Assembly: GCA_963708025.1 (NCBI GenBank) | Contig: CAVPSB010000029.1 | Location: forward strand, 64,001-128,000 | Reading direction: 5' to 3' | DNA from: an uncultured Candidatus Rokubacteria bacterium | GTDB lineage: Bacteria; Methylomirabilota; Methylomirabilia; Rokubacteriales; DASRDR01 | Length of the DNA stretch: 64,000 nt | Part shown: piece after piece, positions 27,737 through 59,063 of the stretch | Layout of the letters: every line of letters begins with the position of its first letter | Numbering within the stretch: position 1 is the first letter of the stretch | Position numbers and translations under genes: made by a program | Notes under the pieces: model-generated | What the model was told of the DNA's origin: nothing | The model's input: the letters and a program-made list of their open reading frames with translations, nothing else | Databases searched by the model: none

Positions 27737-28120
27737 ATGCTTCACATCGTTGAGTCGCGCAAGCCGCTGGATCGGGTCGCGAAGGACTTCGTCGAAGCCG
27801 CAGCTCGCCACAAGTTCGGCGTACTGGGCGTTCACGATCTCAAGGCCAAGATGGCCGAGAAGGGCGTGACGTTCGACCACGAGTGCCGGATCTTCGAGGT
27901 CTGCAACCCGCACCAGGCCAAGAAGGTGCTCGACACCAACCTGGCGATCTCGACCGCCCTGCCGTGCCGGGTCTCGGTCTACGAGGAGGGCGGGATCACG
28001 AAGCTCGCCACGATCAAGCCGACGGCCATGATCGCGCTGTACGGGAACCCTGAGCTCAAGGGAGTCGCCGAGGACGTGGAGACGACCCTCGACCGGATCA
28101 TGGCGGAGGCCGCCCAATAG
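27737..28120 (+). CDS. DUF302 domain protein
   Basis: FGVLGVHDL, IFEVCNP and LPCRVSVYE motifs. Confidence 0.9.
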   Translation: MLHIVESRKPLDRVAKDFVEAAARHKFGVLGVHDLKAKMAEKGVTFDHECRIFEVCNPHQAKKVLDTNLAISTALPCRVSVYEEGGITKLATIKPTAMIALYGNPELKGVAEDVETTLDRIMAEAAQ

Positions 28121-28161
28121 GAGGCCACGGCGGTACCACGCAGCTGACACGGAGGTCCGTG

Positions 28162-28536
28162 ATGGAGAGAAACACGGTCCGTGGGACGAACCTCACCGGA
28201 AGACCCCCGTCATGGAAGACGCTGGCCGGCGGACTGTGTGGCGGGCTGAGTGGCATCGCCGCCCTCCCCATCAGCGCGTGGGCGCAGGAGCGCCCGTGGG
28301 GCTGGGGCTGGCATCCGATGTGGGGGGTATGGGGAGCGTGGGGCGTCGGCATGATGCTGTTCATGCTTGCGTTCTGGGTCCTGGTGATCGTGGGCGTGGT
28401 GCTGGGGATCCGTTGGCTGGCGACCCAGGGACGCGAGTCGCGAGCTGACACCGCGCTGGAGATCCTGCGGCAGCGCTACGCGCGGGGCGAGATCAACAAG
28501 GAGGAGTTCGAGGCCAAGAAGCGGGATCTGAGCTGA
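28162..28536 (+). CDS. SHOCT domain membrane protein
   Basis: WG/M-rich segment, one TM helix, ALEILRQRYARGEINKEEFE. Confidence 0.88.
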   Translation: MERNTVRGTNLTGRPPSWKTLAGGLCGGLSGIAALPISAWAQERPWGWGWHPMWGVWGAWGVGMMLFMLAFWVLVIVGVVLGIRWLATQGRESRADTALEILRQRYARGEINKEEFEAKKRDLS

Positions 28537-28732
28537 TCGGTCTCCGAGGGTCGGTGCACCAGGCGGGGTATGTGGCCAGGTAGGCAGCGCCCCGTCGGTG
28601 GGGCACCGCCGCCCCACCTGCTGTTCGGATGCCCCACTCCCCGCCCTGACCGGGTGCCGGGGCGTCGGTGATCCCCTCCGCCTCGTCAATGCTGGAGGAC
28701 AGTTGGCGGGCCCTTACCGACGCGGGTCCGAT

Positions 28733-28749
28733 CTGGCAAGCACTTTGCT
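28733..28749 (+). promoter_or_regulatory. Sigma54 promoter CTGGCAAGCACTTTGCT
   Basis: Matches TGGCA-N6-TTGC (GG-N10-GC); a near-identical motif lies at 38972-38988. Confidence 0.7.
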
Positions 28750-28791
28750 CGAACCATGATCGACATGCGTTTCGGACGAGGTGCTCCAGCC

Positions 28792-29016
28792 ATGCGCGCC
28801 GCGGGGTTCATTGCCCTGCTCCTCATCGCGGCCTCGATCCCCTGCCTTGTCCATGCCGATTCCGGTGACTCCGATGATCTCTGCCTCAGCTTCGGCCCGC
28901 TCGTCGGGCCGATCGCGGTGCCCCTCCTTCTCCCGGCCGGTGACTCTCACGCGGCTCCCGTGACCGTTCACCAGGCCGTGCCGGTCAACCTGCCCGTTCC
29001 CCCGCCCGAGGCCTGA
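28792..29016 (+). CDS. Small leader ORF: signal peptide, C-x12-C, C-terminal LPVPPPEA
   Basis: Paralog of 38714-38944; first ORF after the sigma54 site (alternative starts at 28756 and 28765). Confidence 0.7.
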   Translation: MRAAGFIALLLIAASIPCLVHADSGDSDDLCLSFGPLVGPIAVPLLLPAGDSHAAPVTVHQAVPVNLPVPPPEA

Positions 29017-29133
29017 CGCCCCCGGACCCGCGCGCTCGAACGCGCGGGTGAACCGACTCGAACGACACAGGCCGGCGCCGCGCCGCGCGCCGCCGGCCAT
29101 CCGAGGGCCATCTCGGGCGCAAAGGGGGCGCTG

Positions 29134-30075
29134 GTGTTCGATCACCATGAAGTCCGCCCGGCTCGCCGACCGGCCGCACGGCCGGTCCGGACGACGGGTC
29201 GGGGTCTGCTCGTCGCGGTGGCGACGCTCGCCGTCCTGGGCACCGCCGGGGCGGGGGCGCAGACGCCGCCTCACGGGATGCCGGGGTCGCTGCCGGGCCC
29301 CGGCGCGGAGATGGCCCACGACCGGCCCTTCTACCGGGAGGGGACGTTCCACGCGCTCGTCGGCGCCGTCCTGATCGGCGGCGCCCTCGTCGCCTACCGG
29401 TTCCTACGTTCCCGGCCGCGCTGGCGTGCCAGGCCGGCCGGGTTCGTGAGCGAGGCCGTCCTGGCGGTCAACCTCATGGACTCCACCCACCTGGCGACGC
29501 ACTACGGCGAGGCGGTGGCCCTGCGTGCGCGGAATGCCCTGGAGGAACAGGTTCGCCGCCTGACCGAGGCGACGCGCGCGTTCCTCGAGACGACCGGCGA
29601 CGGCTGCCTCGTGACGTTCCCGGCCGTGACGCCCGCGCTCGAGTCGGCCGTCGCGCTCGTCCGGGAGCGGCACGAGGGGCCGACCGACCTGGGGCCGGCA
29701 GGCCGGCTCGAGGTCCGGGTCGGCGTGACGTACGGCGAGATCCTCCTCGACGCGCGCGGTGTCCGCCATGGCACCGCCATCAACAAGGCCTATCGGCTCC
29801 TCAGCGTGAAGGCCAAGGATCTCGTCGAGCTGAAGGGCGACGCCGAGGGGACGGCGCTGTCCGAGCGGACCCGGATCCTGGTCGATGAGGACGCGGCGCA
29901 GGAGGTGGGCCGCACCGTGGGACTCGGGTTCGTCGGTTACGCCCGGCTGAGGGGCTTCACCGGCCTCCACGGTCTGTACGAGGCGAGATGGCGGGCTGGC
30001 ACCCAGCCGACCCCGCCCGCCGGCGCCGCGGACCCGCAGGGCCGGGCCTCCGGCCCGCACGGAGGCATCCTGTGA
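29134..30075 (+). CDS. Membrane-anchored degenerate class III nucleotidyl cyclase
   Basis: VNLMDST, ETTGDG, VRVGVTYG, GTAINKAYRL and LRGF motifs; the true start is uncertain. Confidence 0.75.
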   Translation: MFDHHEVRPARRPAARPVRTTGRGLLVAVATLAVLGTAGAGAQTPPHGMPGSLPGPGAEMAHDRPFYREGTFHALVGAVLIGGALVAYRFLRSRPRWRARPAGFVSEAVLAVNLMDSTHLATHYGEAVALRARNALEEQVRRLTEATRAFLETTGDGCLVTFPAVTPALESAVALVRERHEGPTDLGPAGRLEVRVGVTYGEILLDARGVRHGTAINKAYRLLSVKAKDLVELKGDAEGTALSERTRILVDEDAAQEVGRTVGLGFVGYARLRGFTGLHGLYEARWRAGTQPTPPAGAADPQGRASGPHGGIL

Positions 30076-33000
30076 GCGACACGCATCGGGGACGGATGGA
30101 CAGCCCGCCCGCCGGCCGCGGCAACATCAGCCGCTGGTCCATCGAGCATCCCTACGCGATCATCGCCTTCTACCTCGGCGTGGCGCTGCTCTCCCTGCTG
30201 GTGGTCGTCGTCCAGATGCCGCGGCGCATGATGCCCTACGTCGAGAGTCCGCTGGTCGGCGTCGTCTCGATGATGCCGGGGCTCTCCGCCGAGGAGATGG
30301 AGATCTACTTCTCCAAGCCCATCGAGGAGCGGATGGTGGACCTCAAGAACGTCCACTTCGTCCGCTCGACCTCCCAGGAGGGGTTCTCGATCGTCACCGT
30401 GGAGTTCTGGTACGGCACCGACATGAGGAAGGCGCTGTTCGACGTCCAGTCGCTGATGAACGTCGTCCAGGCCGACCTCCCCATGACGGGGGCGAACCTC
30501 AAGCCGTCGTGGGTCCTGGCGATCGACCCCCTGAACATCCCGGTCCTGTCGCTGGCCGTCACCGGGGAGGGCTACGAGCCCGTGCAGCTCCGCACGCTGG
30601 TCGAGAACGAGGTGGTCAACCGCCTGAAGGTCGTCAAGGACGTCTACTCGGTGGTGCCGTTCGGCGGGCAGAAGCTCCAGATGCAGGTGCTCGTCGACCG
30701 CGAGCGGCTCGCGGCCTACCGGATGTCGCTCCCCGACCTCAAGCGCATGCTCGACATGCAGAACCAGTCCCGGCCGGCGGGGACGCTCACGTTCCAGGAC
30801 CGCGAGATCCTGGTCCGGACCGACGCCCGCGCCCGCGCTCCCGAGCAGGTCGCCGCCTACCCGATCGGCAGCATGGAGGGCCGGACCGTCTACCTGCGAG
30901 ACGTCGCGGAGGTCGTGAACGGCCCCCGCGAGCAACGCAGCCTCTACCGCTTCAACGGGAAGGAGGCCATCGAGATCTCGGTCGTCCAGCAGCCGGACGC
31001 CAGCTCGGTGCGGGTGATCGAGGGCGTCAAGGCCAAGCTCGCGGAGATCCAGCGTGACTTCCCCGGGCTCCGGTTCGAGGTGGCCTACGACAACGCCACG
31101 TTCGTCGGCTATCTCATGCGGAACATGGTCGAGGAGCTGGTGGTGGCGGTGCTCCTCACCGGGCTGGTGGTCCTCGTCTTCCTGGGGAACGTCCGGGGCA
31201 CGCTCATCTCGGTCGTGACCATTCCGATCTCGCTCGGCATGGCCCTGCTGGCGATGGTGCCCTTCGGCATGACGCTGAACAGCTCGACCCTCATCGGGCT
31301 CCTGCTCTCGATCGGGCGGCTGGTGGACGACTCGATCATCGACCTCCACTCGATCGAGCGCCACCTGCGGATGGGGAAGTCGCCGAAGGACGCCGCGGTG
31401 GACGGGATCACCGAGGTCCGGCTGGCCGTCCTGGCCATCACGCTCATGGTCTGCGTGGCGCTCCTGCCCCTGGCCTTCTCGGGCGGCATCGTGCAGTACA
31501 TGTTCGAGGGGATCGTCTGGCCGATCGTCTTCGCCCTGCTCGCGTCGGCCGTGGTCTCGTTCACCCTGACCCCGCTCCTGGCCGCGCACCTCTTCGGCCC
31601 GCACGGCGACGGGACGCGGGCATCGCGGCTCCAGCGCTGGGTGCTCGACCCCTCGCAGCGGCTCCTGGACCGGCTCGAGACCCGCTACCGCGGGGGCCTC
31701 GGGTGGGCGCTCCGCAATCGCTTCCTGGTGCTGGCCGGCGCGGTCGCGACGATCCTGGTCGGGGTCGCGCTCTACCCGCGGATCGGCAGCGAGATGATGC
31801 CGCTGGCCGACGTCTCCCAGGCGTACGCGCTGCTGGAGGCGGCGCCGGGGACCTCGTTCGCCCGGACGTCCGACATCGCGGCCGAGGTGGAGCGCCTGCT
31901 CCTCCGGCAGCCGGAGGTGGTCAAGGTCTCCTCGGAGGTCGGCTTCGAGCCGGGCGGCACCTACTTCACCGGCTACAGCATGGGGGCCGTCAATGCCGCC
32001 GGCCTGATGATCACCCTCACGGACTCCTCGAAGCGCCGGCGCGACATCTGGCAGGTGATCGACGCGGTGCGGGACGAGGCCGTCCGGACGATCCCGGGGA
32101 TCCGGCGCCTGGCCATCAAGGAGATGGGCGCCGACGTCATGGCGTCGAGCGCCGCGCCCATCCAGGTCATCGTCTACGGCCCCGAGCTCGAGAAGCTGCA
32201 CGAGCTCGGGGAGCAGGCGCGCCAGCTCGCCGAGCAGATCCCGGGCTTCTCCCAGGTGTCGACCTCGTGGGCCCACACCCTGCCCCAGCTCCACGTCGTG
32301 GTGGACCGCGCCCGCGCCCAGGAGATCGGCCTCTCCGTGGAGGAGGTGGCCGACCAGGCCTACTACGCGCTCAAGGGCGGGCTCACCAACGAGTTCTACC
32401 GGCTGGACAACAAGCGCCTGTTCACGATCCTGCTCCGCTATCGCGGGGACCAGCGGCGCGACTCGAGCGACCTCCAGCAGGTCAAGATCGTGGGCAAGAA
32501 CGGCGAGGTGGTGCCCCTGGCCTCGGTCGCCCGCGTCGAGGAGCGTCCCGGGGCGACGCTGATCGAGCACGACAACTTCCGCCGGGTCGTCAGCGTGCTC
32601 GGGTTCTATCGCAAGGGCGGCCCGCCGAGCATGGAGCTGTCGATGGACCTGCTCATGGCGGCCCACGGGAAGCTCGACTTCCCGCCGGGCTACGGCATGG
32701 AGCTGCGGGGCGACATGACCCAGATGGAAGAGTCGTTCGCGCGGCTGCTCCGCGGCCTCTACCTGGCGGTGATCTTCATGTTCCTGCTGCTCGTGGCCCA
32801 GTTCCGGAGCCTGATCGAGCCGCTGAACATGGTCTTCTCGCTCTCGCTCATGCTCACCGCGATCGTGGCCGGCCTGCTGCTGAACCGGCAGACCTTCTCC
32901 ACCGTCTCCATCCTGGCGGTGGTGATCCTGGCCGGCATGATGATGACGGTCGCGGTGCTGCTGATCGACCTCGTGCTCAAGCTGCGGGCCCAGGGCCTGC

Positions 33001-33296
33001 CGCGCGACGAGGCGATCCTGACGGCCGGGCCCATCCGGCTCCGGCCGATCCTGATGACGTCCCTCATCACCGTCGTCGTGCTGATCCCGGTCGCGCTCTT
33101 CCCGCGGACCGGGATCGACGCCTACGCGCCGCTGGCGACCGTGGTGATCGCCGGCCTCTCGGTGGGGACCGTGCTGGCCCTGTTCGTCGTCCCGGTGGTC
33201 CACACCTACACGGACGACCTCGCCCGGCTCACGGCGGCCGCGTGGCGGCGCCTCACCGGGCGGCGCCCCGCCCGCCCGGAGAAGGTGTCGACGTGA
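30072..33296 (+). CDS. RND efflux permease (AcrB/CusA superfamily)
   Basis: PGLSAEEME, GRLVDDSI and RLRPILMTS motifs; ~1075 aa. Confidence 0.93.
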   Translation: MSDTHRGRMDSPPAGRGNISRWSIEHPYAIIAFYLGVALLSLLVVVVQMPRRMMPYVESPLVGVVSMMPGLSAEEMEIYFSKPIEERMVDLKNVHFVRSTSQEGFSIVTVEFWYGTDMRKALFDVQSLMNVVQADLPMTGANLKPSWVLAIDPLNIPVLSLAVTGEGYEPVQLRTLVENEVVNRLKVVKDVYSVVPFGGQKLQMQVLVDRERLAAYRMSLPDLKRMLDMQNQSRPAGTLTFQDREILVRTDARARAPEQVAAYPIGSMEGRTVYLRDVAEVVNGPREQRSLYRFNGKEAIEISVVQQPDASSVRVIEGVKAKLAEIQRDFPGLRFEVAYDNATFVGYLMRNMVEELVVAVLLTGLVVLVFLGNVRGTLISVVTIPISLGMALLAMVPFGMTLNSSTLIGLLLSIGRLVDDSIIDLHSIERHLRMGKSPKDAAVDGITEVRLAVLAITLMVCVALLPLAFSGGIVQYMFEGIVWPIVFALLASAVVSFTLTPLLAAHLFGPHGDGTRASRLQRWVLDPSQRLLDRLETRYRGGLGWALRNRFLVLAGAVATILVGVALYPRIGSEMMPLADVSQAYALLEAAPGTSFARTSDIAAEVERLLLRQPEVVKVSSEVGFEPGGTYFTGYSMGAVNAAGLMITLTDSSKRRRDIWQVIDAVRDEAVRTIPGIRRLAIKEMGADVMASSAAPIQVIVYGPELEKLHELGEQARQLAEQIPGFSQVSTSWAHTLPQLHVVVDRARAQEIGLSVEEVADQAYYALKGGLTNEFYRLDNKRLFTILLRYRGDQRRDSSDLQQVKIVGKNGEVVPLASVARVEERPGATLIEHDNFRRVVSVLGFYRKGGPPSMELSMDLLMAAHGKLDFPPGYGMELRGDMTQMEESFARLLRGLYLAVIFMFLLLVAQFRSLIEPLNMVFSLSLMLTAIVAGLLLNRQTFSTVSILAVVILAGMMMTVAVLLIDLVLKLRAQGLPRDEAILTAGPIRLRPILMTSLITVVVLIPVALFPRTGIDAYAPLATVVIAGLSVGTVLALFVVPVVHTYTDDLARLTAAAWRRLTGRRPARPEKVST

Positions 33297-33387
33297 GCCT
33301 CCGGGCACGGTCCGCGGCGGCGATCCAGGGAAGCCCAGCGCCAGAGCCTGGCGCGCAACCCATCGTCGAGCTGGCAGGGAGGACGCG

Positions 33388-34919
33388 ATGAACATCGACG
33401 GCGTGGACCGGGACGATCTGCGGACGCCCGGATCCGACGGCGAGCACGCGGTCGTGGGCCGGCGCGCCCGCGGGCGGGGACCCGTTCGGCGCACCGTTGC
33501 GGTCCTGGTGGGCCTCGCGCTCGTCGCGGCGGCAGGCGCGTGGGCGTACTACGCGAACATGGCCGCCGGCCGGCCGGCGATGGACATGACGATGCCGGTG
33601 AGCGGCGGCGCGGCGGCCTTCCCGGTCGTGCTGACCCCGGTCGAGCGCGGGCCGATCACCGGCACCGTGACGTACACGGGGAGCGTGGCGGCCTTCAACG
33701 AGGAAGAGATCTACCCCCGCGTGACCGGACGGATCGTCGAGATGGCGGTCTATCCCGGGGACGCCGTCCGGGCGGGGCAGGTGGTCGCCCGGCTCGATGA
33801 CGTGGAGTTGAGCTCCCGGGCGCGGGAGGCGGCCGCCAGCGCGACGGCGGCGGAGGCCAACCTGGCCCAGATGGAGGCCGACGTCCTGGCGGCCGGGCAC
33901 GGCGTCACCCAGATGGACCGCGAGCTCGCGATGGTCGAGGCGGAGGTCGAGTACCAGGAGCAGCTCGCCGCCCGGGAGGAGCGGCTGTTCCGCGTGGGAG
34001 CGGTCTCCCGCCAGGACGTCGAGAGCGCTCGCGCCATGGTCGCCGCCGCCCGGGCCAAGGTCGCGGCGGCCCGGGCGCGGGCCGAGCAGGCCAAGGCGAT
34101 GGAGGTGAGCGCTCTCCGCAAGCGGGACGCGATGACGGCCATGGCGAGCATGAGCCGGGCCCAGCTCCGCACGGCGGAGGTCGTGCGCGACTACGTGACC
34201 ATCGTGGCGCCGAGCGCCGGCTACGTCGTGAAGCGCCTGGTGGCCCCGGGCGTCCTCGTCCAGCCCGGGATGGCCATTCTGAAGATCGCCCAGCTCGACC
34301 GCGTGCGCCTGCAGGCGAACGTCGGAGAGAAAGACGTCGGGTCGATCCGGGTCGGGGCGCCGGTGACGGTCACGTCGACCGACGGCCGGCCGCCCGTGGC
34401 CACGGGCGTGACCGCGGTCTTCCCCTTCGTCAACCAGGGCCCGCGGACCGCGGTGGTGGAGGCGCTCGTGGACAACGCGGGCCGCCGGTTCCTGCCGGGC
34501 CAGTACGTGACCATGCAGTTCGTGACCGGGGAGCGCCCGGAGGCCCTCAGCGTGCCGCGCGGGGCGGTCGCCCGGATGGGCGGCAAGGCCCGCGTGTGGG
34601 TCGTGGCCGACGGGCGGGCCGAGCCGCGGGAGGTGACGACGGGCCTCGAGACCCCGGAGCGGGTGGAGATCGCGGGAGGCCTTCGCGGGGACGAGCGGGT
34701 CGTCGCGCGCGGCCACGAGGGCCTCTACGCCGGGGCCCGGGTCAGCGACGTGGCGAAAGGCGCCGCGGCAGCCGGCGGGGCCGGCGCACCGGTCACTCCC
34801 TCGCATGGCGGGGCGGGGGCCGGAGCCGCGCACGGCGGCCGCCGGCACCGGCGCCATCCGCCACGCCCCCTCAGCCAGCTGGTCAACCAAAGGAGGCGCC
34901 CCATGGCACCACGCACTGA
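33388..34919 (+). CDS. RND periplasmic adaptor (MFP); probable frameshift near 34838
   Basis: PRVTGRIVEMAVYPGDAVRAGQ, IVAPSAGYV and FLPGQYV motifs; the alternative frame ends ...KEAPHGTTH* at 34919, overlapping the TolC start. Confidence 0.85.
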
Positions 34920-36266
34920 GCGGATGGTGAGACGGTGGACGCGTGTGGCGGCAGGGTCGATCCTCGGCCTGCTCGCCGCTGGATCCGTGGCGGCGCAAGG
35001 GTTGCCGCCGCTCCCCCGGGTGGACGCGCCGCTGACGATGGAGCAGGCCGTGGACCTGGCGCTCCAGAAGAGCCTGCGCGTCCGGGCGGCCCAGGCCGAC
35101 TCCCGCACGATGGAGTCGATGCGCCGGGAGGCCCAGGCGCCGTTCTGGCCGCAGCTCTCCGCCAACGGCTACGCGAACGACCAGAACCTCGCCCCCAACG
35201 TCTACTCGTCCGCCGGCACGACGATGGCCCGGAATACCCAGGTCTTCCTGGCCGACCAGACGGGGGACGCGAACCTGACCGCGATGTATTCGCTCTTCTC
35301 GGGCGGGCGGGACTACTACGGCTACAAGGCGGCCGCCGCCCGGGCCGACGCCTCCCGCCAGATGCTCCGCGGCGCCGAGATCGACGTCGCCATGCAGGCC
35401 CGGCTGGACTACATCGCGGCCCTGCGCGAGGCGGAGAATGTCGGCGTCACCGGCGACCTCGTCCGCCAGGTCGAGGAGCGGCTCCGGGTGACCCGCGAGG
35501 CGTTCGACGCCGGCCGGGTGCCGCGATACTACGTGCTCCGCGACGAGGCCGAGCTGGCGAACACCGTCCAGATGGACGCCATGGCCCGGAGCCGGGCCGG
35601 CCAGGCGCTGATCGCCCTGAAGACCACGCTCGGGATCGACCTCGCCTCCACCATCGCGCTCGCCGACCGACTCGCCTACACGCCGGTCCCGGTGTCGGTG
35701 GAGGAGGCGATCCGCGGCGCCAGCGACGCGCATCCCGAGGTGCGGGCGGCCTCCAAGCAGCGGCAGGCGGCGGAAGCCGACGTGCGGGCGGCCTACGGCA
35801 ACTACTTCCCGCAGGTGAGCGTGGCCGCCATGTACGACTGGGTCAAGACGAAGACCAGCGGGTCGAACGACTCCGACCAGGGCTACTCGGTCGGCCTCGT
35901 CGTCACCCTGCCGATCTTCGACGGCTTCATGCGCGAGAACGCCGTCCGGACGGCCAAGGCCAAGCTCGACCGGACGCTCCAGGCCGAGGGGCTCGCCCGC
36001 CAGCAGATCGCGAAGGAGGTGTCCCAGGCCGCGCTGATGCTCGCCGCGGCCGAGAAGAGCGTGGAGGCGAGCGGTAAGGGACTCGAGCAGGCCGAGGAGG
36101 AGGCCCGGATCGTGCAGGAGCGCTTCGCCGCCGGGCGGGGCATCCAGCTCGAGATCCTGGACGCGCAGGCGAGCCGGACGCGCGCCCGCTTCAACGCGGT
36201 CGCCGCGCTGCCGAGTACCAGACGGCGCTCGCCATGTGGCGCCGCGCCATCGGCGAGATCCGATGA
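34903..36266 (+). CDS. TolC-family outer membrane protein (frameshift near 36210)
   Basis: AAGGAGG RBS plus signal peptide; LTMEQAVDLAL, YFPQVSV and LPIFDG motifs; the shifted frame ends AEYQTALAMWRRAIGEIR*. Confidence 0.85.
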
Positions 36267-36320
36267 GCCGAGCAATCGGCCGAGCGAAGGAGGCCGGTGG
36301 CACATGAGAGGAGAAGGCAA

Positions 36321-36647
36321 ATGAAACGGACGGGTGCAAGTCTGATCGGCGCAGGGGCCATGGTGCTGGCACTCGTCGCTGGCGCGGCGTGGGCCGAGAC
36401 CAAGATCACCGTCACGCGCGAGGAGAGCAAACCCCAGAAGGTCGAGGTCAAGGTTGGGGAGGAGGTGCGCTGGGTGAATGCCTCCGGCGGCACCGCCCAC
36501 ATCGCGTTCGGCGGCGTCGATGGCGTCCAGTTCTACCTCGGCAAGGAGGGACGCGTGAAGTTCGACAAGCCGGGAACGTACGACTACACCGTGCACATCT
36601 CGGGCATCAAGGCGCATGCCCACACCGGAGCTGTCGTCGTGAAGTAG
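36321..36647 (+). CDS. Small exported cupredoxin-fold protein lacking the type-1 Cys
   Basis: PQKVEVKVGEEVRWVN...H...FDKPGTYDY...GAVVVK. Confidence 0.75.
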   Translation: MKRTGASLIGAGAMVLALVAGAAWAETKITVTREESKPQKVEVKVGEEVRWVNASGGTAHIAFGGVDGVQFYLGKEGRVKFDKPGTYDYTVHISGIKAHAHTGAVVVK

Positions 36648-36673
36648 GGACTCCGGGACCGGGCCGTCCAACG

Positions 36674-36754
36674 GCCTTCCCAATCGAACGCCGGGTCGAC
36701 CACGGCGGCCTTGGGTACGAGACCGGCGTCGTCCCGATCGTCGCGGGAGAGGTT
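36674..36754 (-). pseudogene. Short GlgX (glycogen debranching enzyme)-like fragment
   Basis: NLSRDDRDDAGLVPKAAVVDPAFDWEG resembles the GlgX D.RDSA...PK.VVVD..FDW segment. Confidence 0.5.
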
Positions 36755-36816
36755 CCCCGGGACGACCGGAACGTCTCCATGGCGACCCTCCTCACCTGCC
36801 AATCCAAATTCGCGGG

Positions 36817-37770
36817 TCATGGTCTGATGTCCCGTTCAAACGAGCGGACCAGGGCCCAGACTCGCTCGGGCTCCCGGAGCAGCACCTGGTGATCGGCCCC
36901 GGGTAATGCGACGAAGCGGGCGTTCGGGCGGGTGGCGGCCAGCGCCCGGGCCGCCGCGAGCGGCGCGACCTGGTCATCCTGCCCGTGGATGAACAGCACG
37001 GGTGTCGCCACCGTGCGCATCAGAGCCGTGGCATCGGTGCCGAGGATCGTCTCGTGGAGCGTGCCGGAGAGAGAGCCCCAGGTGTGGCGCATCGAGTCGG
37101 TGTAGACGTCCTCGGGCAGGCCGACCCACGCGGCCAGCCAGGGCCAGGCGTAGAGCGCCCGGAGGTAGTGGGCGACGCGCAGCGACGGACTGCCGGCGAG
37201 CATCTGGCGAAACAGCCAGGACCGGCGGCCGAGCCGGGCCAGGGCGTCGGCCTCGTCCCGATAGAGGGGGAGCCCGATGAGGACGGCGCCCTGGAACCAC
37301 GCCGGGCGGCGACTGACCAGGCCCAGCGCTACGACCGCGCCCAGCGAGTGCCCGACCAGCCAGCCGTCCCCCCGGTCGAACCCACGCTGCCGCAGAAGGT
37401 GCTCGAGGGCCGCGAGGTGGTCGTCGAGGCCATACCGGGCGCGGGGCTTCGGCGACTCGCCGAAGCCCAGGAGATCGGGGATGAGCAAGGTGTGGTCGCC
37501 GAGCAGCGGGGCGACCCGATCGACCCAGTAGCGCCCCGAGCCGGCCAGGCCGTGCACGAGGACCATGCGTCGCGGCCCCTGGCCGACCTCGACCGCACGA
37601 AGCTCGGTCGCGGTCGGGTCGAACGGCGGCGCCGTGGCCTCCTGCCAGTAGTTCCACGCCCCGAAACCCGCGAGCGCGGCCACCGCGAGGCCGAGCGCGA
37701 TCAGGCCCCGGCGGAGGGCCGTCCACCGCCGGGCGGTGACGGACGTCGGCCGCGGGACGAGAGGCATCAT
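36817..37770 (-). CDS. Alpha/beta hydrolase with an N-terminal membrane anchor
   Basis: VHGLAG, PDLLGFGES, GHSLG, HGQDD and GADH motifs. Confidence 0.88.
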   Translation of the reverse strand: MMPLVPRPTSVTARRWTALRRGLIALGLAVAALAGFGAWNYWQEATAPPFDPTATELRAVEVGQGPRRMVLVHGLAGSGRYWVDRVAPLLGDHTLLIPDLLGFGESPKPRARYGLDDHLAALEHLLRQRGFDRGDGWLVGHSLGAVVALGLVSRRPAWFQGAVLIGLPLYRDEADALARLGRRSWLFRQMLAGSPSLRVAHYLRALYAWPWLAAWVGLPEDVYTDSMRHTWGSLSGTLHETILGTDATALMRTVATPVLFIHGQDDQVAPLAAARALAATRPNARFVALPGADHQVLLREPERVWALVRSFERDIRP

Positions 37771-37993
37771 GCGAGCTGGCGGCGGAGTCGCCAGAGCCCG
37801 AGCCCGAAGATCGCGAACCCGAGGGTCGCCATGGCCAGCGCCTGGGACCAGAACGCCGTCAGGCCGGCGCCCTTGTGAGGAAGATGAGGATCCCGGCGTC
37901 CGGAGCCGGCCGCCCGAGCCAGAGCCACGCGGCGACTCCGGCGCCGGCCAGGGCCACCACGGCCGCGGCCGGCGCCCACCGTCTCGTCGTCAC
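37767..37993 (-). pseudogene. Fusion scar: HlyD-like N-terminus joined to an ABC-2 permease C-terminus
   Basis: VTTRRWAPAAAVVALAGAGVAAWLWLGRP... then IFL/KGAGLTAFWSQALAMATLGFAIFGLGLWRLRRQLA*. Confidence 0.55.
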
Positions 37994-38009
37994 GGGTTTC
38001 CCGGCCTTC

Positions 38010-38399
38010 CTACGGCTTCTGCGCGCCCATCATCTCGGTCATCCGCTTCTGCATGTCCGCCATGCGCTCCCGCATCTTCGGCATGTCGGACATCATGCCC
38101 GGCCCCATCCCCTTGCCGGTGGATGCCATGCCTCCCATCATCGTGCCCATCTCCTTCATCATCTCGCCCATCTGCTTCATCTGCTCCGGGGACATCTGGC
38201 CCCGCGCCATCCGGTCGCCCATCTGCTCCATCAGCCCGCTCATCTGCTGCATCATCCCGGTCATCTGCGGGTGCATGCCCATCATGCCGGGGCCCATCGC
38301 GCCGCCGGGAGGTGGCGCGGGCTGCTGAGCGAGTGAGGTGGCCACGCCGAGGAACACGACTCCGAGAATCGCCATCGCCGTCTTCACGGTTGCCTCCAT
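38010..38399 (-). CDS. Exported Met-rich protein (candidate Cu(I)/Ag(I) binder)
   Basis: Signal peptide; about 30 Met in 129 aa. Confidence 0.8.
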   Translation of the reverse strand: MEATVKTAMAILGVVFLGVATSLAQQPAPPPGGAMGPGMMGMHPQMTGMMQQMSGLMEQMGDRMARGQMSPEQMKQMGEMMKEMGTMMGGMASTGKGMGPGMMSDMPKMRERMADMQKRMTEMMGAQKP

Positions 38400-38460
38400 G
38401 GACGAGTGATGCCGCGCCTGGTTCGTCGAGCGCAGCCCCTCGCCGGGCCGGGTCGTTGTT

Positions 38461-38607
38461 TCACGCCTTCACGTACTGCGCGGGCGCCTTCTCGAACTTG
38501 GCCTTGCAGGCGCCCGAGCAGAAGTAGTAGGTCTGCCCCTGGTGGGTGGCCGTCGCGGCCGCGGCCTTTTCGTCGACGGCCATCCCGCACACCGGATCCC
38601 TCGTCAT
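38461..38607 (-). CDS. YHS/TRASH domain protein
   Basis: MTRDPVCGMAVD...YYFCSGACKAKF; GGAGG RBS. Confidence 0.92.
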   Translation of the reverse strand: MTRDPVCGMAVDEKAAAATATHQGQTYYFCSGACKAKFEKAPAQYVKA

Positions 38608-38713
38608 GATCGAACCTCCTTCCAATCGTCGGTCGAGCGCCCCACGTGAAGAGTCTCCTCTCCCGATGGTGATTCCCGTGGGCCCTCTGGTCTGAGGGCG
38701 ATCGAGGCCGGGG

Positions 38714-38944
38714 TCAGGCCTTGGGAGGCGGAGCGGGCAGATCGAGGCTGAACAGGGGAGTGGCGCCGGGCGGCTCGAGCGCAACCATTCCCACCAGGCC
38801 ACGGGGAGGGCCGAGATCGGGGGCGCGCGTGACGGCCACGACGACCAGGCACAGGTCCTCACCCGCCGACTCGGATCCGTCGAGGAGACACGTACCGAGG
38901 ACCAGAAGCAGGGTCACCGCGAAGAGGGCAGTCAGCCGGGTCAT
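38714..38944 (-). CDS. Small leader ORF: signal peptide, C-x12-C, C-terminal LPAPPPKA
   Basis: Paralog of 28792-29016; first ORF after the sigma54 site. Confidence 0.7.
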   Translation of the reverse strand: MTRLTALFAVTLLLVLGTCLLDGSESAGEDLCLVVVAVTRAPDLGPPRGLVGMVALEPPGATPLFSLDLPAPPPKA

Positions 38945-38971
38945 CGCGTGCATCGCTCCGGTCAACGGCGA

Positions 38972-38988
38972 AGCAACCGGCTTGCCAG
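38972..38988 (-). promoter_or_regulatory. Sigma54 promoter CTGGCAAGCCGGTTGCT
   Basis: GG-N10-GC; shares CTGGCAAGC...TTGCT with the 28733 site. Confidence 0.7.
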
Positions 38989-44561: not shown

Positions 44562-45175
44562 GGACTCCTCCCTCTCGGCCTACGCCCAGGTGAGCATCGA
44601 GATCGCCGCATCGACACCGGTCGGTGGGGTTGCCAGAGCCGTTGGAAGCTCCTTCGGGATCGTTCGGTGCCGCGCCGCCCGCACGTCCACCGCGTCTTCA
44701 GCCTCACTCCCCGGGGGTGGTCAACGAGGGCCCGAAGTCGGGCTGATTACACTCCATCCGGCCGGCGACTGTCAACCGGCCACCCGATCGCGGCCAATGG
44801 CGCCTACGGGCCGCGGACGGCGTATCGGCCCAAGACACCGCGGCGGACCGGACGCCTGCCGCTGGACGGGCCGTGGCGTCCGAGCAGTCGTGCCCCGGGG
44901 GAAACCCGCATGGACTCGCGAAGGGCGGCCGGTCGTCCTGCTGGCATCTCGATTGCGTGAGGACCAGGAAGAATACCTTACGGGCAGCGTCCCAGGCCCG
45001 GGCACTGCCTTTCTCCCCAAAGGGCCGATTTCGGGCCCTTTGGGGGGACCGAGCCATGATGTGTCTGAGGAGCCGGCGTCCCACCCCCCGGTGGTTTCCC
45101 GGCGATCAAACGGGCATGGGCTCACGGGACCATCGGCAATCTACTTGCTGACTGGGGGCAAAGGAGTGGACGGAG

Positions 45176-49826: not shown

Positions 49827-50205
49827 TTACCGGCCGCCTCTCGTCGGTCGCGGTTTTGTTCTTACTCTTTTCCTGCCCGGCGTCCGCCTGCCCGGCGTCG
49901 GCCTCTTCTTGGGCTTCCTGGACGGTCTCTCGTAGACATCGATGTCTTCGTCCCTGTAATAGAGCCGAAAGCCGGCGGTGTCCCAGAGGTCACGCTCCGG
50001 AACTGTCAGGGGTCTCCGGCGGGGTTGCCGGCGCCGATCGGCATCCACAGGCAGGCCCTCCGCACGCCGCTCTGCCCGTCGGCGGTCGAGGATCACCTCG
50101 AACCCGCTCGTCTGACTGGAAGTTTCGACGCAAGTCCGCGTACAGTTCGCGTCGCTCCTGTTGCACGATGATGAGCCACCGAGGGAGCTGAGTCTTGTCA
50201 GTCAC
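49827..50205 (-). CDS. Arg-rich hypothetical protein with DRR/ERR motifs (frameshift near 50097)
   Basis: WLIIVQQERRELYADLRRNFQSDERVR / VILDRRRAERR...DRRR. Confidence 0.6.
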
Positions 50206-50665
50206 TGAAGATCACCTCCGTGCCGTGGGCGCCTCAGCGCCAGTTGTCACCGACGTAGGCGCTGGTATGCCGAACTGCCACGTGCCACTGATGGCCATCG
50301 GGGCTGGAGCGCATGGGCTCGCCAGATTCGATGGACGGTGCTACGTGCGATACGCCGACGAGGGACGCGCACATCGCGGCTCGTCCGGTGCCGAGCCTGG
50401 CGCCGGCGGTCTCGAGCGTGGGCCCGACGACCTGCGCCCGCGTCCGGGCGCTCACCGTCGGCAGCGGGCCTGACCGCGCCGCTCGTGCAGCCCTGCCCCT
50501 CTTCTTCCGAGAACCGCTGGGCGCATCCGGTGTGGCCGGTCCACGTTGCCGCCTCCACGCCCGACCCAGGTCGAGCTTGATACGATTCGCCTCGGTCAGT
50601 ACGATGGGGCGAGGCTGGTTGGGAATCGCTCCCTCCCCAAATGCCATGGCCTATACTAACCAATA

Positions 50666-50813
50666 CTAGTGTCCCGTCCCAGAGATTCGATGGCAAATTC
50701 GGGCCAGGATCTCGTCGGCCGTCTTCGTCCGGATGAAAGGCATGGGCTCCGCGTTGATAACGGCGATGGTACTGCCGGATCGCCGCTTCGAGGGCCGGCG
50801 TGCTTCGATGCAC
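50666..50813 (-). mobile_element. IS630-family transposase 3' remnant with element end
   Basis: HRSTPALEAAIRQY / NAEPMPFIRTKTADEILARICHRISGTGH*; terminates in ...GGGACACTAG. Confidence 0.75.
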
Positions 50814-51532
50814 GTCGCGGCAAAATCCGCCTCGGCTCGGACGACGACGACGTGCAGTGCGGATTCGTAAGTGAGCGCGACGCTCGTGTCCCTCCGCTCG
50901 TGCAAGGCGAGCAGCCGAAACGCGGGATCTTCGGCCAGGGGTCTGCGTAGCCCGCCGGGCAGTTGTAGACGGACTGACGGAACAGATCAGGCAGGGGAAT
51001 TGGCGGTCGCGTCCGGTGCGGGGTCGTGAGGTGTCGCTCGATTAGGTTCAGGATCTTGGCCGAGCCTCTCGGTGTTCCTGCATGCAGCGGTAGGCCGCCG
51101 CAGGATTCCCGGACTCGAGATGCGGGCTGACCTCGGATGGAATGGGGCAGCGGGGTGCCCAGAGTGTGAAAAGATTTTCCTCAAAGGGGCGTCCCTCCAT
51201 CCCCCCGGGCATCCCAGTCGGACGCTCACAGCCCGCATCGGGGCTGTTTCATCAATGAATTCCGATTCTTCGTAAGATGCTCTCGTCCGCGGGCGCCGCG
51301 CTCGTGGATGGAGGTTGCTCGAAGCTTTCGGCTCCCGTCATTGGCATTTGTCTTGCGCTAACGCTCTCGTGCAATGGGGATCGGGAAGGACGCTGCTGCG
51401 CGACACGACAGAGATGGGGAGGGCGCGAATCACCACCAACGGGCTCGTTGACAGTCCGCATGCCGCGAGGGAGCGACTGGGACGGCCGATCAGCGGGAGC
51501 CGCGAATCGCGCGGCACCTGCCGGCGACTGAC

Positions 51533-52375
51533 GTGACGACGGCGGTCTATACACCGGATCCCCAACTCCGGAGACCGGGCCGACTGGTTCACGAGATGAT
51601 TCGTGACCTGTCCGCCTCCCGGGAGCTGGCCTGGCGTATCTGCGCCCGTAACATAACCGCCCAGTATCGGCAGACCGCTCTGGGGTACGTCTGGGCGGTC
51701 GTCCCCCCCCTGATGACCAGCCTCGTCTTCATTCTGCTCGATTCCTCGAACCTCCTGAGGACGGGCGACACCGGCATTCCCTATCCCGTGTACGTCTTGA
51801 TGGGAACTGTGTCATTTAGCTTCTTTCTCGATGCGCTCAACGCCCCCCTGGCGGCGGTCGGCGGATCGCGCGGGGTGCTGGCGAAGATCAACTTTCCTCG
51901 GGAGGCACTCCTGCTCGCCGCGGTGGGACAGGTACTCTTCAGCTTCGCCGTGAAGCTCGCGCTGGTCGCGGCGGTCTTGCTGGCGTTTCGAGTCCCGGTG
52001 CAGCCGACGGCAGCACTGGCAGCGGTTCCCCTGGCGGGGCTGTTGATGATGGGCGTCGCGCTCGGAGTTCTGCTCATTCCCATCGGCGCGCTGTTCCAGG
52101 ACGTCGTGCACGGCCTGGCCATGGTGGGCACTGGCCTCGTGTTCTTGACGCCCGCCGCCTATCCGCCTCCCCGCCACGGCCTCCTCGGTGTCCTGACGGC
52201 CTGGAATCCGCTGACCCCGCTGATCATGGCGGCCCGTGACTTGGTCGTGCTCGGGTCGAGCAGCTATATGGTGCCCATGATCATCGTTGTGCTGGTCACG
52301 ATGGTGGTGCTCCTTCTGGCCTGGGTTGTGTTCCGGTTGGCCATGCCGATCCTCATCGAACGAATGGGGAGCTGA
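51533..52375 (+). CDS. wzm: Polysaccharide ABC transporter permease
   Basis: QYRQTALGYVWAVVPP, KINFPRE, FLTPAAYP and NPLT motifs. Confidence 0.92.
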   Translation: MTTAVYTPDPQLRRPGRLVHEMIRDLSASRELAWRICARNITAQYRQTALGYVWAVVPPLMTSLVFILLDSSNLLRTGDTGIPYPVYVLMGTVSFSFFLDALNAPLAAVGGSRGVLAKINFPREALLLAAVGQVLFSFAVKLALVAAVLLAFRVPVQPTAALAAVPLAGLLMMGVALGVLLIPIGALFQDVVHGLAMVGTGLVFLTPAAYPPPRHGLLGVLTAWNPLTPLIMAARDLVVLGSSSYMVPMIIVVLVTMVVLLLAWVVFRLAMPILIERMGS

Positions 52376-53826
52376 TGAGCGGAGAGGTACTCATCGAGGT
52401 CGAGGGAATCTGGAAGAAGTTCTGCCGCCGCCTCAGGCATTCGCTATGGTACGGCCTGAGTGATCTCGCAAGGGAGATGACAGCTCGGCCTCATCGCGGG
52501 ACCAACCTGCGAGCCAACGAGTTCTGGGCACTCCGGGACGTGTCGTTCTCAGTGCGGCGGGGCGAGATGATGGCTTTGATCGGTCGGAATGGCGCCGGGA
52601 AGAGCACGCTGCTGAAGATGCTCAACGGAATCATGCGGCCGGACCAGGGGCGAATCACCATGCGTGGGAGGGTCCAGGCGCTGATCGAGCTGGGCGCGGG
52701 ATTCAGCCCCATTCTGTCCGCCCGGGAGAACGTGTACATCAATGCCGCCGTGTTGGGGATGCGACGGGCGGACGTCGATCGAGCGCTTCCGGAGATCATT
52801 GACTTTGCGGGCTTAGAGGACTTCGTGGAGACGCCGCTGCAAAGCTTCAGCTCGGGGATGAAGGCTCGGCTCGCCTTTGCCGTGGCGACACAGCTGGACC
52901 CGGATGTGCTGCTCATCGATGAGGTTCTCGCCGTCGGCGACATGGCGTTCCAGGAAAAGTGCATGCGTCGGATGGAAGCGTTTCGCCGATCGAACAAGGC
53001 GATCATCTTTGTCACTCACAGCCTCTATCAGGTCGAGGCCATGTGTAACAGAGCGTTGTGGCTCGACGACAGCGGCGTGGTCTGCTATGGCGCCGCCAGC
53101 GATGTGGTCCGGGCATATCTGGATGCCCAGGAAAAGCGAGCCATCGCCGAGGCCCACGCGGAGGGAGTCGCGTACCAAGCGCGAGCGATCGCCGCCACCC
53201 GGACATACTTTCAAGCGAGAGACGAGGAGAGGGCGAAGGTAACCCGAGACGCGCTGTCCCGCAGTGAGCCGGTCCAGGGTCGAGCCGCCCAGATCCTTGA
53301 GCCCGCCCGAAGTGAGCCGATCCAGATTCGAGCCGTCGAGATCCTGGATGGAACAGGCCAACCTTGTACCGAACTTCCGTTCCTATCCGATCTGAGGGTG
53401 CGCATTCAATACGAAGCAATGGAGCCCATCGAGCGACCGCTCTTCGGCCTGAAATTCTTCACCGAGGAGCGCGACGTCTTCGAAGCCAGCATGCTGGCGG
53501 ACGGGCCCGGCCCGGAGCAGGTGGAGGGTCCGGGAGTCGTTGAGTGTCGGATCCCGCGGCTTCCACTTACGCCAAAGGCCTATCGGGTGGTGCTCAGCGG
53601 TTTCCGGTCCGGGGCTGCATTCGCGGAGGTCATGACCATGCGCACGGTCGCCCATTTTCGGGTGACCGACGAGGGAATGGGCCGCGTGTCGATGCGGGGC
53701 CCTCTGGCGCTGACTCATTTGCGTCAAGGATCACCGGTGTACGTGCCGCGAACGTGGCACTTCTACAACGGTCACGGGGGTGAACCTGTCGCCACCGTGG
53801 AGGCGTATGTCGCCGAGTCTCGATGA
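52375..53826 (+). CDS. wzt: Polysaccharide ABC transporter ATPase with a C-terminal Wzt_C domain
   Basis: FWALRDVSF, GRNGAGKST, FSSGMKARLAF and DEVLAVGD motifs. Confidence 0.93.
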   Translation: MSGEVLIEVEGIWKKFCRRLRHSLWYGLSDLAREMTARPHRGTNLRANEFWALRDVSFSVRRGEMMALIGRNGAGKSTLLKMLNGIMRPDQGRITMRGRVQALIELGAGFSPILSARENVYINAAVLGMRRADVDRALPEIIDFAGLEDFVETPLQSFSSGMKARLAFAVATQLDPDVLLIDEVLAVGDMAFQEKCMRRMEAFRRSNKAIIFVTHSLYQVEAMCNRALWLDDSGVVCYGAASDVVRAYLDAQEKRAIAEAHAEGVAYQARAIAATRTYFQARDEERAKVTRDALSRSEPVQGRAAQILEPARSEPIQIRAVEILDGTGQPCTELPFLSDLRVRIQYEAMEPIERPLFGLKFFTEERDVFEASMLADGPGPEQVEGPGVVECRIPRLPLTPKAYRVVLSGFRSGAAFAEVMTMRTVAHFRVTDEGMGRVSMRGPLALTHLRQGSPVYVPRTWHFYNGHGGEPVATVEAYVAESR

Positions 53827-53946
53827 TTAGACGATCCTGGTTGGGCAAACCTCGGGTGAGCGCCTGGGCGAGCTTCAGGTTGGCTACGACCTGTTCAACA
53901 ACTGGCTTGAACACCACATGCTAGAAGCTCAGGACTCTACGACCCG

Positions 53947-55260: not shown

Positions 55261-55770
55261 TTCGGCGAATGAGAACTGAACACGTGTCCCTCTGGGATGC
55301 GAGCGATGGACCCGGGACTCTTCGCGTGTGTGCGCGGTGATGGCATGCTGGTCGAAGTTCCGTGCCGCCAGAACGTCGGTGACAATCTCGTCCGACTACG
55401 CGAGGAATGCGCAGGTAAGGGGTCGAGCACCAGCGGCTCGCATCTGTCGGCAACGACCATAACGATCTAGCATACGTCTGCACGCCGAGATCGGCTTGAG
55501 CTACCACGGCGACCTCTCCATCGGCAACCGTTCGATCGACGCCCCTGTCGTCGCGGGCTGCGACGCACGAAATGTCCAACAACCACACCAGATCCTCTTG
55601 CCCCACTCGAGGTCAGGGCGGTTGCCCGGAAGACGCGATCGCATGAGCGTGAGCACAGTCGAAGAAATCGAGGCGGCGGCGTCCTTGGATCGCTCGAGAC
55701 TCATCCTGCCACACCGCACCGGCGTCTATCCTGCATGCCTCTTCGCTTCGCAGGGAAGCCCGATCCACCC

Positions 55771-57411: not shown

Positions 57412-57427
57412 GCCCTCTGCTTGGCGA

Positions 57428-59051: not shown

Positions 59052-59063
59052 CGGGATCCGCAT
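59025..59063 (+). repeat. 38-39-bp direct repeat, copy 1
   Basis: GGCCTAGCCGTCAAATCCAATGCTTGACGGGATCCGCAT. Confidence 0.9.

Follow-up and report, generated by a model that had tools for sequence, protein, structure and literature searches.

The window analysed here, a 64,000-nucleotide (nt) stretch of contig CAVPSB010000029.1 from an uncultured Candidatus Rokubacteria bacterium, contains two loci, called A (plus strand) and B (minus strand), at each of which a sigma-54 type -24/-12 promoter element is followed by a small open reading frame (ORF) for a peptide with two Cys residues and a C-terminal PPP, and then by genes related to metal handling. An earlier note on this DNA had drawn attention to the two GG-N10-GC elements and to the small ORFs behind them, and all of these lie where it had placed them. 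The features of the two loci up to the first downstream gene are as follows.

28599-28616, plus strand: enhancer-like palindrome A, TGGGGCACCGCCGCCCCA, 134 nt upstream of -24 element A, the presumed site of a bacterial enhancer-binding protein (bEBP)
28733-28749, plus strand: sigma-54 type -24/-12 element A, CTGGCAAGCACTTTGCT, matching 11/12 consensus positions; Cys1 codon 109 nt downstream; transcription start predicted at about 28760
28792-29016, plus strand: ORF of peptide A, 74 amino acids (aa), MRAAGFIALLLIAASIPCLVHADSGDSDDLCLSFGPLVGPIAVPLLLPAGDSHAAPVTVHQAVPVNLPVPPPEA, its ATG preceded by GAGG
29017-29133, plus strand: intergenic spacer A, 117 nt, with a GC hairpin at 29026-29049 and a second near 29071-29099
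39105-39088, minus strand: enhancer-like palindrome B, TGGGGCGCGGTCGCCCCA, 117 nt upstream of -24 element B
38988-38972, minus strand: sigma-54 type -24/-12 element B, CTGGCAAGCCGGTTGCT, matching 11/12 consensus positions; Cys1 codon 97 nt downstream; transcription start predicted at about 38961
38714-38953, minus strand: ORF of peptide B, 79 aa, MHAMTRLTALFAVTLLLVLGTCLLDGSESAGEDLCLVVVAVTRAPDLGPPRGLVGMVALEPPGATPLFSLDLPAPPPKA (76 aa if the ATG at 38944 is used)
38608-38713, minus strand: intergenic spacer B, 106 nt, with a hairpin at 38706-38675

The two peptides share one layout. Peptide A, for which alternative upstream ATG codons at 28756 and 28765 would give 86 and 83 aa, has a hydrophobic N-terminus, Cys18 (28843-28845), an acidic loop, Cys31 (28882-28884) and a 39-aa spacer, and it ends in LPVPPPEA, with the PPP at 28999-29007 followed by E, A and the stop codon. 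Peptide B likewise has a hydrophobic N-terminus, an acidic Cys-x12-Cys loop and a 40-aa spacer, and it ends in LPAPPPKA, its PPP (38731-38723; codons CCG CCT CCC) being followed by K, A and the stop codon. The Cys-loop segments read CLVHADSGDSDDLC in peptide A and CLLDGSESAGEDLC in peptide B, and the second Cys lies 43 and 44 residues before the stop, respectively, exactly as the earlier note had counted. The residues preceding the first Cys do not seem to fit the lipobox pattern. The two peptides gave a weak pairwise BLASTP match (E = 0.041), and searches of the source genome with single peptides returned the two peptides themselves plus matches with E > 0.1 inside long ORFs; their kinship, as judged by sequence comparison, rests on a family profile and not on this pairwise match.

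We built that profile from the close relatives of the two peptides found in metagenomes (five for peptide A and two for peptide B) and searched it against 1.84 billion representatives. At E ≤ 1e-3 it matched 29 clusters, of which 27 were 65-128 aa long with a match ending at or next to the C-terminus; the other two were a 111-aa protein matching profile positions 7-55 only and a 2699-aa protein for which no stretch was scored. In a six-frame search the family turned up in 50/251 genomes of the phylum, several of them with two copies, and in 7/21 genomes of the taxonomic family. The 57 hidden Markov model (HMM) hits collapsed to 42 unique peptides, 41 of which carry PPP and form the set used to describe the anatomy of the family. 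None of the Pfam and NCBIfam models, DUF2946 included, matched any of 32 aligned members. An Exiguobacterium locus that came up in an alignment-based search (38% identity over 40 residues) was rejected as a chance match. In a protein atlas queried by language-model features, to be taken as a lead only, the nearest clusters were labelled Candidatus Rokuibacteriota, and the nearest Pfam-bearing ones were a 'DUF2946 domain-containing protein' carrying DUF6769 or DUF6660 (score 0.90) and a 'Cation transporter' carrying CzcI (score 0.88).

Alignment of the 32 sequences left C18, C31 and PPP as the only invariant columns, with L19 and D66 nearly invariant and hardly any gaps from the first Cys to the end. 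The loop between the two Cys spans 10-18 aa (n = 41) and holds 1-6 acidic and 0-4 His residues, so that the C-x12-C spacing, which the earlier note had taken for a constant of the family, is a property of the two window peptides. The distance from the second Cys to the first Pro of PPP was 39-41 aa in 40/41 members, although this is the stretch least conserved by sequence; in the sole outlier (38 aa) an adjacent Cys was probably picked wrongly. After PPP come 2 further aa in a core group, and 5-11 in a group of divergent members with LDPPP(K/R). At the other end, a hydrophobic segment (17-residue Kyte-Doolittle window, mean 2.7) forms the N-terminus and is a putative export signal. The ratio of nonsynonymous to synonymous substitutions (dN/dS) was 0.25-0.87 in all 10 pairs that could be compared without gaps, and the ORF thus appears to be translated. 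Judged by these sequence features, there is a conserved, unannotated family of about 75-residue, putatively membrane-targeted peptides, distinct from DUF2946 as the earlier note had proposed.

A -24/-12 element was present 92-147 nt upstream of the Cys1 codon in 41/41 members, agreeing with the scored consensus (TGGCACG-N4-TTGCW) at 10 or more of its 12 positions in 38/41 and at 9/12 in the remaining 3/41; for background, 55 sites with at least 10/12 matches were counted in 860 kb on both strands, true sites included. In the window, TGGCA-N7-TGC was seen 5 times against 1.54 expected, and 4/100 shuffles reached 5; such enrichment in the window alone is weak evidence, and it is the comparative data that make it strong. 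Between the -12 element and a start codon with its Shine-Dalgarno (SD) sequence there are about 20-35 nt, which makes for a very short 5' untranslated region (UTR). Further upstream, the word CGCCCCA occurred within 220 nt of the promoter in 22/39 loci, as compared with 1/37 control regions. The enhancer-like palindrome in this region has the full form TGGGGC-N6-GCCCCA: perfect GGGGC-N6-GCCCC copies, always with a spacer of 6, were found in 11/41 loci at -89 to -136, most of the other loci have half-sites at the same place, and both window promoters have the palindrome.

A composite of palindrome, 60-140 nt and TGGCA-N6-TTGC occurred three times in the 8.17-Mb source genome and not once in the reversed control. 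Two of the three sites are the window promoters; the third lies on another contig, C35.

C35:61968-62073 (locus L069, 1050-1620), minus strand: third promoter of the same type, TGGGGC-N6-GCCCCA followed by TGGCACCTCTGTTGCT

This promoter heads the gene of a 49-aa two-helix membrane protein and those of further small membrane or stress-type proteins, and because no Cys/PPP leader peptide stands behind it, the regulon appears wider than the peptide family. Two more TGGCA-N6-TTGC matches in the window (44942-44956 and 51342-51356, both on the plus strand) have no palindrome at the expected upstream distance and may be other sigma-54 promoters.

The source genome encodes rpoN (one Sigma54_DBD match) and about 30 bEBPs (Sigma54_activat matches). 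In 4/20 large loci (L039, L040, L047 and L051) a histidine kinase gene belongs to the operon itself, together with one for a response regulator that has Sigma54_activat and HTH_8 domains. In the source genome the best match to the L039 response regulator, on a different contig from the window, is 52% identical, and about 15 more candidates reach 42-51%, too many for one of them to be singled out as the cognate regulator. The RNA libraries of two studies supplied contigs whose first positions are 28772 and 28774, some 24 nt beyond the GC of element A. These contigs come from a relative about 95% identical, cover 28772-28986 only, with none over 28567-28767, and may reflect DNA carry-over; contigs are unsuited to mapping 5' ends, and these starts hint only weakly that a 5' end lies near the predicted one. 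Gaps in their coverage downstream of the peptide ORF were considered as a sign of attenuation, a reading that we rejected because contig depth cannot rank the parts of a transcript. With an element in every member, a common palindrome upstream of it, and rpoN and many bEBPs in the genome, sigma-54 control of the peptide operons, as the earlier note had suggested, is well supported.

Behind the two peptides lie genes of the following kinds.

29134-36647, plus strand: operon A (cyclase-homology membrane protein, RND pump, membrane fusion protein (MFP) with OEP, cupredoxin-like protein)
29134-30075, plus strand: membrane protein with a cyclase-homology domain; no Pfam hit; PDB 3mr7_A, E 1.3e-5
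29988-33296, plus strand: RND pump (Pfam)
33388-36324, plus strand: MFP and OEP in one uninterrupted 978-aa ORF (HlyD_D23 at residues 93-374, OEP at 772-940)
36297-36647, plus strand: cupredoxin-like 116-aa protein, below threshold (E 5.7e-4; 20.3 bits against a cut-off of 27)
36817-38607, minus strand: operon B (YHS, Met-rich protein, possibly alpha/beta hydrolase)
38461-38607, minus strand: YHS-domain protein (Pfam)
38010-38399, minus strand: Met-rich periplasmic protein with many MGxM and MMxxM repeats; no Pfam match
36817-37770, minus strand: alpha/beta hydrolase (Pfam), possibly a member of operon B

The neighbours named in the earlier note thus stood in part: RND, HlyD, OEP and YHS were recovered by Pfam, the cupredoxin stayed below threshold, the cyclase had no Pfam hit, and the MFP and OEP turned out to share one ORF. 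Between the two domains of this 978-aa frame there is a signal-like segment, and the frame represents either a fusion or an internal start. The product of 29134-30075 has a short periplasmic stretch containing His and Met and a cytoplasmic domain weakly like class III cyclases; a cyclase-homology protein (also at L046:11129-12085) adjoins the RND pump, on either side of the leader peptide depending on the genome. Pfam also placed a cytochrome c gene upstream of locus B. Directly upstream of promoter A are DUF302 and SHOCT-domain genes (27737-28536, plus strand), and DUF302 recurs in locus L041.

The same arrangement was seen elsewhere. In all 24 peptide loci with long flanks the peptide was the first ORF behind the promoter, which bears out the earlier note's proposal that it heads metal-related operons, while the downstream genes differed. 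The commonest of these (about 10 loci) encodes a 131-139-aa periplasmic protein with the motifs DTHSV.LD and GSGHHRE and no Pfam family, which was not found in the source genome with the query used.

L039:9229-9645, L040:9535-9951, L042:8951-9358 and about 7 more loci: examples of this GHHRE protein

Other downstream sets consist of YHS, then a Met-rich protein, then DUF5676; of a DegP-like protease, a cupredoxin-like protein and an RND pump (4 loci); or of a P1B-ATPase, a kinase with its regulator and a cyclase-homology protein. The Met-rich proteins follow YHS in the window and in L042, L044, L046, L041 and L058, have no Pfam match and, from their sequence, are likely to bind Cu(I)/Ag(I). 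An SD-preceded start on the same strand lies 64-163 nt past the peptide stop in 36/41 loci; in the GHHRE class this distance is 64-105 nt, mostly 70-88. Where there are two such operons there are two diverged copies of the peptide, one for each (the source genome, G000, as well as G001, G002, G003, L046 and L056). Taken together, we are highly confident that the family exists, that its members are preceded by a sigma-54 promoter and enhancer, and that they stand at the head of metal or envelope operons.

Some observations on the surroundings are recorded here in their own right. An ICMT/PEMT-type membrane methyltransferase domain occurs alone or fused to the N-terminus of a histidine kinase (L039:9658-11574, L040:9964-10638, L041:8145-8993), and the fusion is an unusual sensor module. 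The GC content of the window is 62-74%; at 50001-64000 it drops from about 0.70 to 0.62-0.65 over polysaccharide-biosynthesis genes (ABC/Wzt, pyruvyl transferase, glycosyltransferases, methyltransferases), a region that may be an acquired island.

The best explanation of the peptide appears to be that it is a cis-acting, metal-tuned arrest peptide, a reading that we hold with middling confidence. We infer an arrest role from the fixed 39-41-aa spacing between the second Cys and PPP, the presence of one copy per operon, a CCU-CCC codon bias within PPP (described below), and an architecture like that of CutF, a copper-responsive leader of Rhodobacter capsulatus; the fixed spacing of about 40 aa is what the CutF model predicts and is hard to explain otherwise. 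That the peptide is always the first ORF, in single copy per operon, in front of differing downstream genes points to action in cis, and so does the codon bias. In the mechanism that we propose, each locus would be a transcription unit with a sigma-54 promoter and an enhancer palindrome for a shared NtrC-type activator, in which the peptide ORF comes first and starts within about 10-30 nt of the predicted transcription start. The peptide would begin with a membrane anchor or signal in N-in orientation; its loop between the two Cys, acidic or His-containing, would face the periplasm, and a spacer, fixed in length (40 aa) and free in sequence, would end at PPP. With the ribosome at PPP, the Cys pair would just have arrived at the periplasmic side of the translocon, and its state, metal-bound (Cu/Ag type) or oxidised, would set the dwell time of the ribosome there. 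The length of the pause would in turn govern expression of the downstream metal-efflux, metal-binding or envelope genes, adding an operon-specific translational check on top of the sigma-54 transcriptional switch. The source genome encodes EF-P. Metal binding, stalling, cis action and the readout are steps that we infer, and two-tier regulation by sigma-54 and leader, also put forward in the earlier note, is plausible.

Candidates for the readout would be pairing of a CCUCC within the PPP codons with the next SD, or a role for a conserved hairpin. The middle Pro codon of PPP is CCT (the rare CCU) in 28/41 members; among the 4115 Pro codons of 166 neighbouring genes its share is 5.5%, and PPP motifs of other genes have it in the middle in 0/16 cases. 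CCC stands third in 29/41, and CCTCC occurs inside the PPP codons in 30/41. The PPP codons of peptide A contain no CCU. CCUCC is complementary to GGAGG, and the minimum-energy structures of both window loci, like those of several others, show the PPP codons base-paired with the SD that follows. At locus A the PPP, E and A codons pair with the GGGGG SD region before the GTG at 29134 (minimum free energy -84.9 kcal/mol, z -2.74; 6.2 expected PPP:SD pairs). At locus B the CCUCCC of the PPP codons pairs with GGAAGGAGG, the SD of the YHS gene (3.4 expected pairs), and the probability of this SD being unpaired is 0.31 when free and 0.49 with a ribosome on PPP. The codon bias could alternatively reflect an effect of rare codons on decoding.

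Folding tests were run on 33/41 loci, leaving out L009, L024, L030 and L035 (no start within 200 nt), L036 and L038 (starts uncertain) and both L056 copies. With a ribosome footprint masked on PPP, SD accessibility rose modestly, from 0.34 to 0.39 (p = 0.014). A GC hairpin starts at a conserved place, a median of 19 nt past the stop, with a stem sequence that differs between loci; its mean energy was -15.3 kcal/mol vs -11.6 kcal/mol in dinucleotide shuffles, and in 11/33 loci at most 1/20 shuffles was equally stable. No U-run follows this hairpin, and the SD lies outside it. Relative to peptide B, YHS is read in the +1 frame, which is already open within the peptide gene (ORF 38461-38862, minus strand), probably by chance in GC-rich DNA. 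A +1 frameshift at CCU-CCC that would fuse peptide B to YHS was rejected: the equivalent frame of peptide A meets a stop after about 15 codons, and the intergenic lengths across loci show no frame pattern either.

A number of results weigh against a metal-tuned arrest peptide acting in this way. At equilibrium, at least 3 PPP:SD pairs were expected in only 9/33 loci; neither SD accessibility (Wilcoxon p = 0.25) nor PPP:SD cross-pairing (p = 0.14) differed from that of synonymous recodings; and the fold of the whole spacer had a mean z of -0.09. RNAalifold, applied to a MAFFT alignment of 20 spacers of the class with the 135-aa GHHRE protein, gave no consensus structure, the hairpin being misaligned there, and the conserved hairpin lies beyond the reach of a ribosome sitting on PPP. 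A binomial p-value for the codon bias overstates the evidence, because the 41 members are related. The 42nd member, the second L046 copy, which precedes an RND pump, has LPP in place of PPP at the same +40 position, and the third promoter, on C35, does without such a peptide. As for a link to the known DUF2946 leaders, the HMM of that family (PF11162) matched none of the 32 members at E ≤ 10, and its six-frame search of the source genome at E ≤ 1 returned neither window peptide. Finally, the segment after the second Cys is hydrophobic in 38/41 members (17-residue Kyte-Doolittle window of at least 1.6), peptide B being the clearest exception (0.54), and such a segment also fits a stable two-helix membrane protein.

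This last point opens onto the alternative that survives best, and that we consider possible and clearly less probable: the peptide would work in trans as a small, stable membrane protein. It would form a hairpin of two segments, with a Cys/Asp/His site for metal on the periplasmic side and with PPP and a basic residue as its structural cytoplasmic end, and would belong obligatorily to every operon in the sigma-54 regulon. It could serve as a metal buffer or chaperone, like CzcI, whose cluster is among the nearest named ones in the atlas (again as a lead only), or as a feedback modulator of the regulon's sensor kinase, like MgrB, and the four operons that encode a histidine kinase together with a sigma-54 response regulator would suit the second role. 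MgrB-type regulators are small membrane peptides with periplasmic Cys, encoded within a two-component regulon; their action on the kinase is in trans, and they are not known to carry a C-terminal PPP or to head every operon. The lack of significance in the SD-sequestration tests also counts for this reading. Against it, the second segment is not hydrophobic in peptide B, 2-5 prolines are commonly present in such segments, and AlphaFold2 gave peptide A a single helix (residues 2-24; pLDDT 71.6, pTM 0.30). Moreover, a trans-acting protein needs neither a copy in each operon nor a constant first position, and it leaves unexplained both the synonymous CCU-CCC bias and the keeping of length without sequence over 40 residues.

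A second alternative, which we regard as unlikely, is that translation of the leader tethers the polycistronic mRNA to the translocon through the membrane anchor, with the PPP pause prolonging the contact and the Cys serving folding or turnover. Synthesis of the downstream periplasmic and membrane proteins would thereby take place at the membrane, and the peptide itself would sense no metal. The very short 5' UTR, the position of the ORF, always first, and the invariant pause site would all suit such a tether, and many of the downstream products examined have a predicted signal peptide or are membrane proteins. It does not account for the invariant Cys pair with its acidic or His loop, nor for the restriction to metal-related operons, and the C35 promoter heads small membrane proteins with no leader of this kind; literature searches found no bacterial precedent. 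That the ORFs are non-functional, the conservation being that of promoter, UTR or RNA elements in GC-rich DNA with chance long frames, is highly improbable: the genome is 72% GC with many spurious ORFs, the peptide ORFs have a lower GC content at third codon positions (0.73-0.83) than the genes around them (about 0.9) and peptides A and B are weakly similar as a pair, but Cys, Cys and PPP are invariant while their codons vary, no indels occur over 40 codons in 41 members, dN/dS is <1 in 10/10 pairs, 27/29 library clusters end at or next to the same C-terminal position, and SD-like sequences precede the starts.

The cis-acting arrest peptide can also be cast in a bolder form, which we put forward as speculation and consider doubtful. 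The family would then be a counterpart of CutF unrelated to it in sequence, a modular 'metal gate' of a whole sigma-54 regulon, in which the length-fixed spacer of 40 residues brings a Cys-loop-Cys sensor to the periplasmic mouth of the translocon at the very moment of the ribosome's arrival at PPP and the arrest codons, CCN-CCU-CCC, double as an anti-Shine-Dalgarno sequence that silences the next gene, so that the parked ribosome would be at once the output of the sensor and the switch.

Metal-sensing arrest peptides (CutF and CruR) are a recent discovery, with two proteobacterial cases whose mechanism and polarity are still debated. The present family constitutes an independent natural data set of 41 diverse sequences with only five invariant residues, and because the 40-aa spacing is kept while loop and tail vary, the geometric model can be tested through the length of the spacer. 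In the literature library searched, we found nothing that joins DUF2946 with sigma-54, and a search on Rokubacteria, copper and sigma-54 gave nothing relevant among the papers listed; the combination of one kind of leader heading several operons of a single regulon with sigma-54 and enhancer control was not found described. For annotation, the gain is a promoter-plus-leader signature for a putative copper and envelope-stress regulon in an uncultured phylum of soil and sediment, along with the flagging of unannotated partner families, namely the 135-aa periplasmic GHHRE protein and the Met-rich proteins.

Among known systems, a precedent for the sigma-54 transcriptional tier over copper genes is CorSR of Myxococcus xanthus, a two-component system whose response regulator has a domain for interaction with sigma-54 and which controls a copper-tolerance cluster with several putative sigma-54 promoters (PMC3707914); unlike in the present family, no leader peptide is mentioned for CorSR in the available part of that source. 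With SecM, MifM and VemP the family shares an N-terminal export or insertion signal and a C-terminal arrest site, tuned at the translocon in those peptides according to the accessible portion of bioRxiv 10.1101/2025.02.05.636593. Their targets are Sec/YidC components and many of them arrest at RAPP, whereas the present family is associated with metal and envelope genes and carries PPP: where a monitor of Sec or YidC would have an export component downstream, we found metal and envelope-stress genes instead. CruR of Bordetella pertussis comes closer in function, being an upstream ORF of the DUF2946 kind that makes the downstream copper gene Cu-dependent through translation arrest; as described in the portion of the same preprint available to us, Cu lifts the arrest, after which Rho brings about termination, the signal peptide can be dispensed with and EF-P plays no part (bioRxiv 10.1101/2025.02.05.636593).

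The closest parallel is CutF. According to the accessible parts of the sources, this protein has a signal peptide and a CxxxC motif, and 45 aa separate that motif from a C-terminal PPP; at stalling the Cu motif is placed in the periplasmic vestibule of SecY (PMC9973294), and when the ribosome stalls in a Cu-dependent manner while export is under way, a stem-loop covering the SD of the next gene is opened, with EF-P involved (PMC9973294; bioRxiv 10.1101/2025.02.05.636593). The earlier note had described the known leaders as CxxC and RAPP peptides and had set PPP apart as a difference; CutF departs from that description in both motifs, and as it stalls at PPP, this motif is a feature in common. 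Like CutF, the present peptides are small (<150 aa) first ORFs of metal operons with an N-terminal export signal (putative here), a Cys-based motif, PPP near the C-terminus and about 40-45 aa from the Cys motif to PPP, followed on the same strand by a gene that is usually less than 100-160 nt away, with RND, OEP, HlyD and copper proteins as neighbours. The family also fits the rules by which CutF-like proteins are recognised, with a length of 65-128 aa, a hydrophobic N-terminus, PPP 2-11 residues before the stop in 41/42 unique members and, in 36/41, the SD-preceded start 64-163 nt further on.

The differences concern sequence, sensor and regulation. Unlike CutF, the family has no match to DUF2946 or to any other Pfam or NCBIfam model; its motif is C-x10-18-C with an acidic or His loop, as against CxxxC; its spacer is mostly hydrophobic and strictly fixed in length; it has sigma-54 promoters with a common enhancer, one copy heading each of several operons of the regulon; it lacks a clear conserved stem-loop shielding the SD; and it belongs to a different phylum. 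The words 'Rokubacteria', 'Methylomirabil' and 'sigma-54' do not occur in the three text supplements of PMC9973294, a subset of that source, whose list of CutF-like proteins may nevertheless include some members. On the parts of these sources that were available, we regard the family as a variant of the CutF-type leaders and not as a member of DUF2946.

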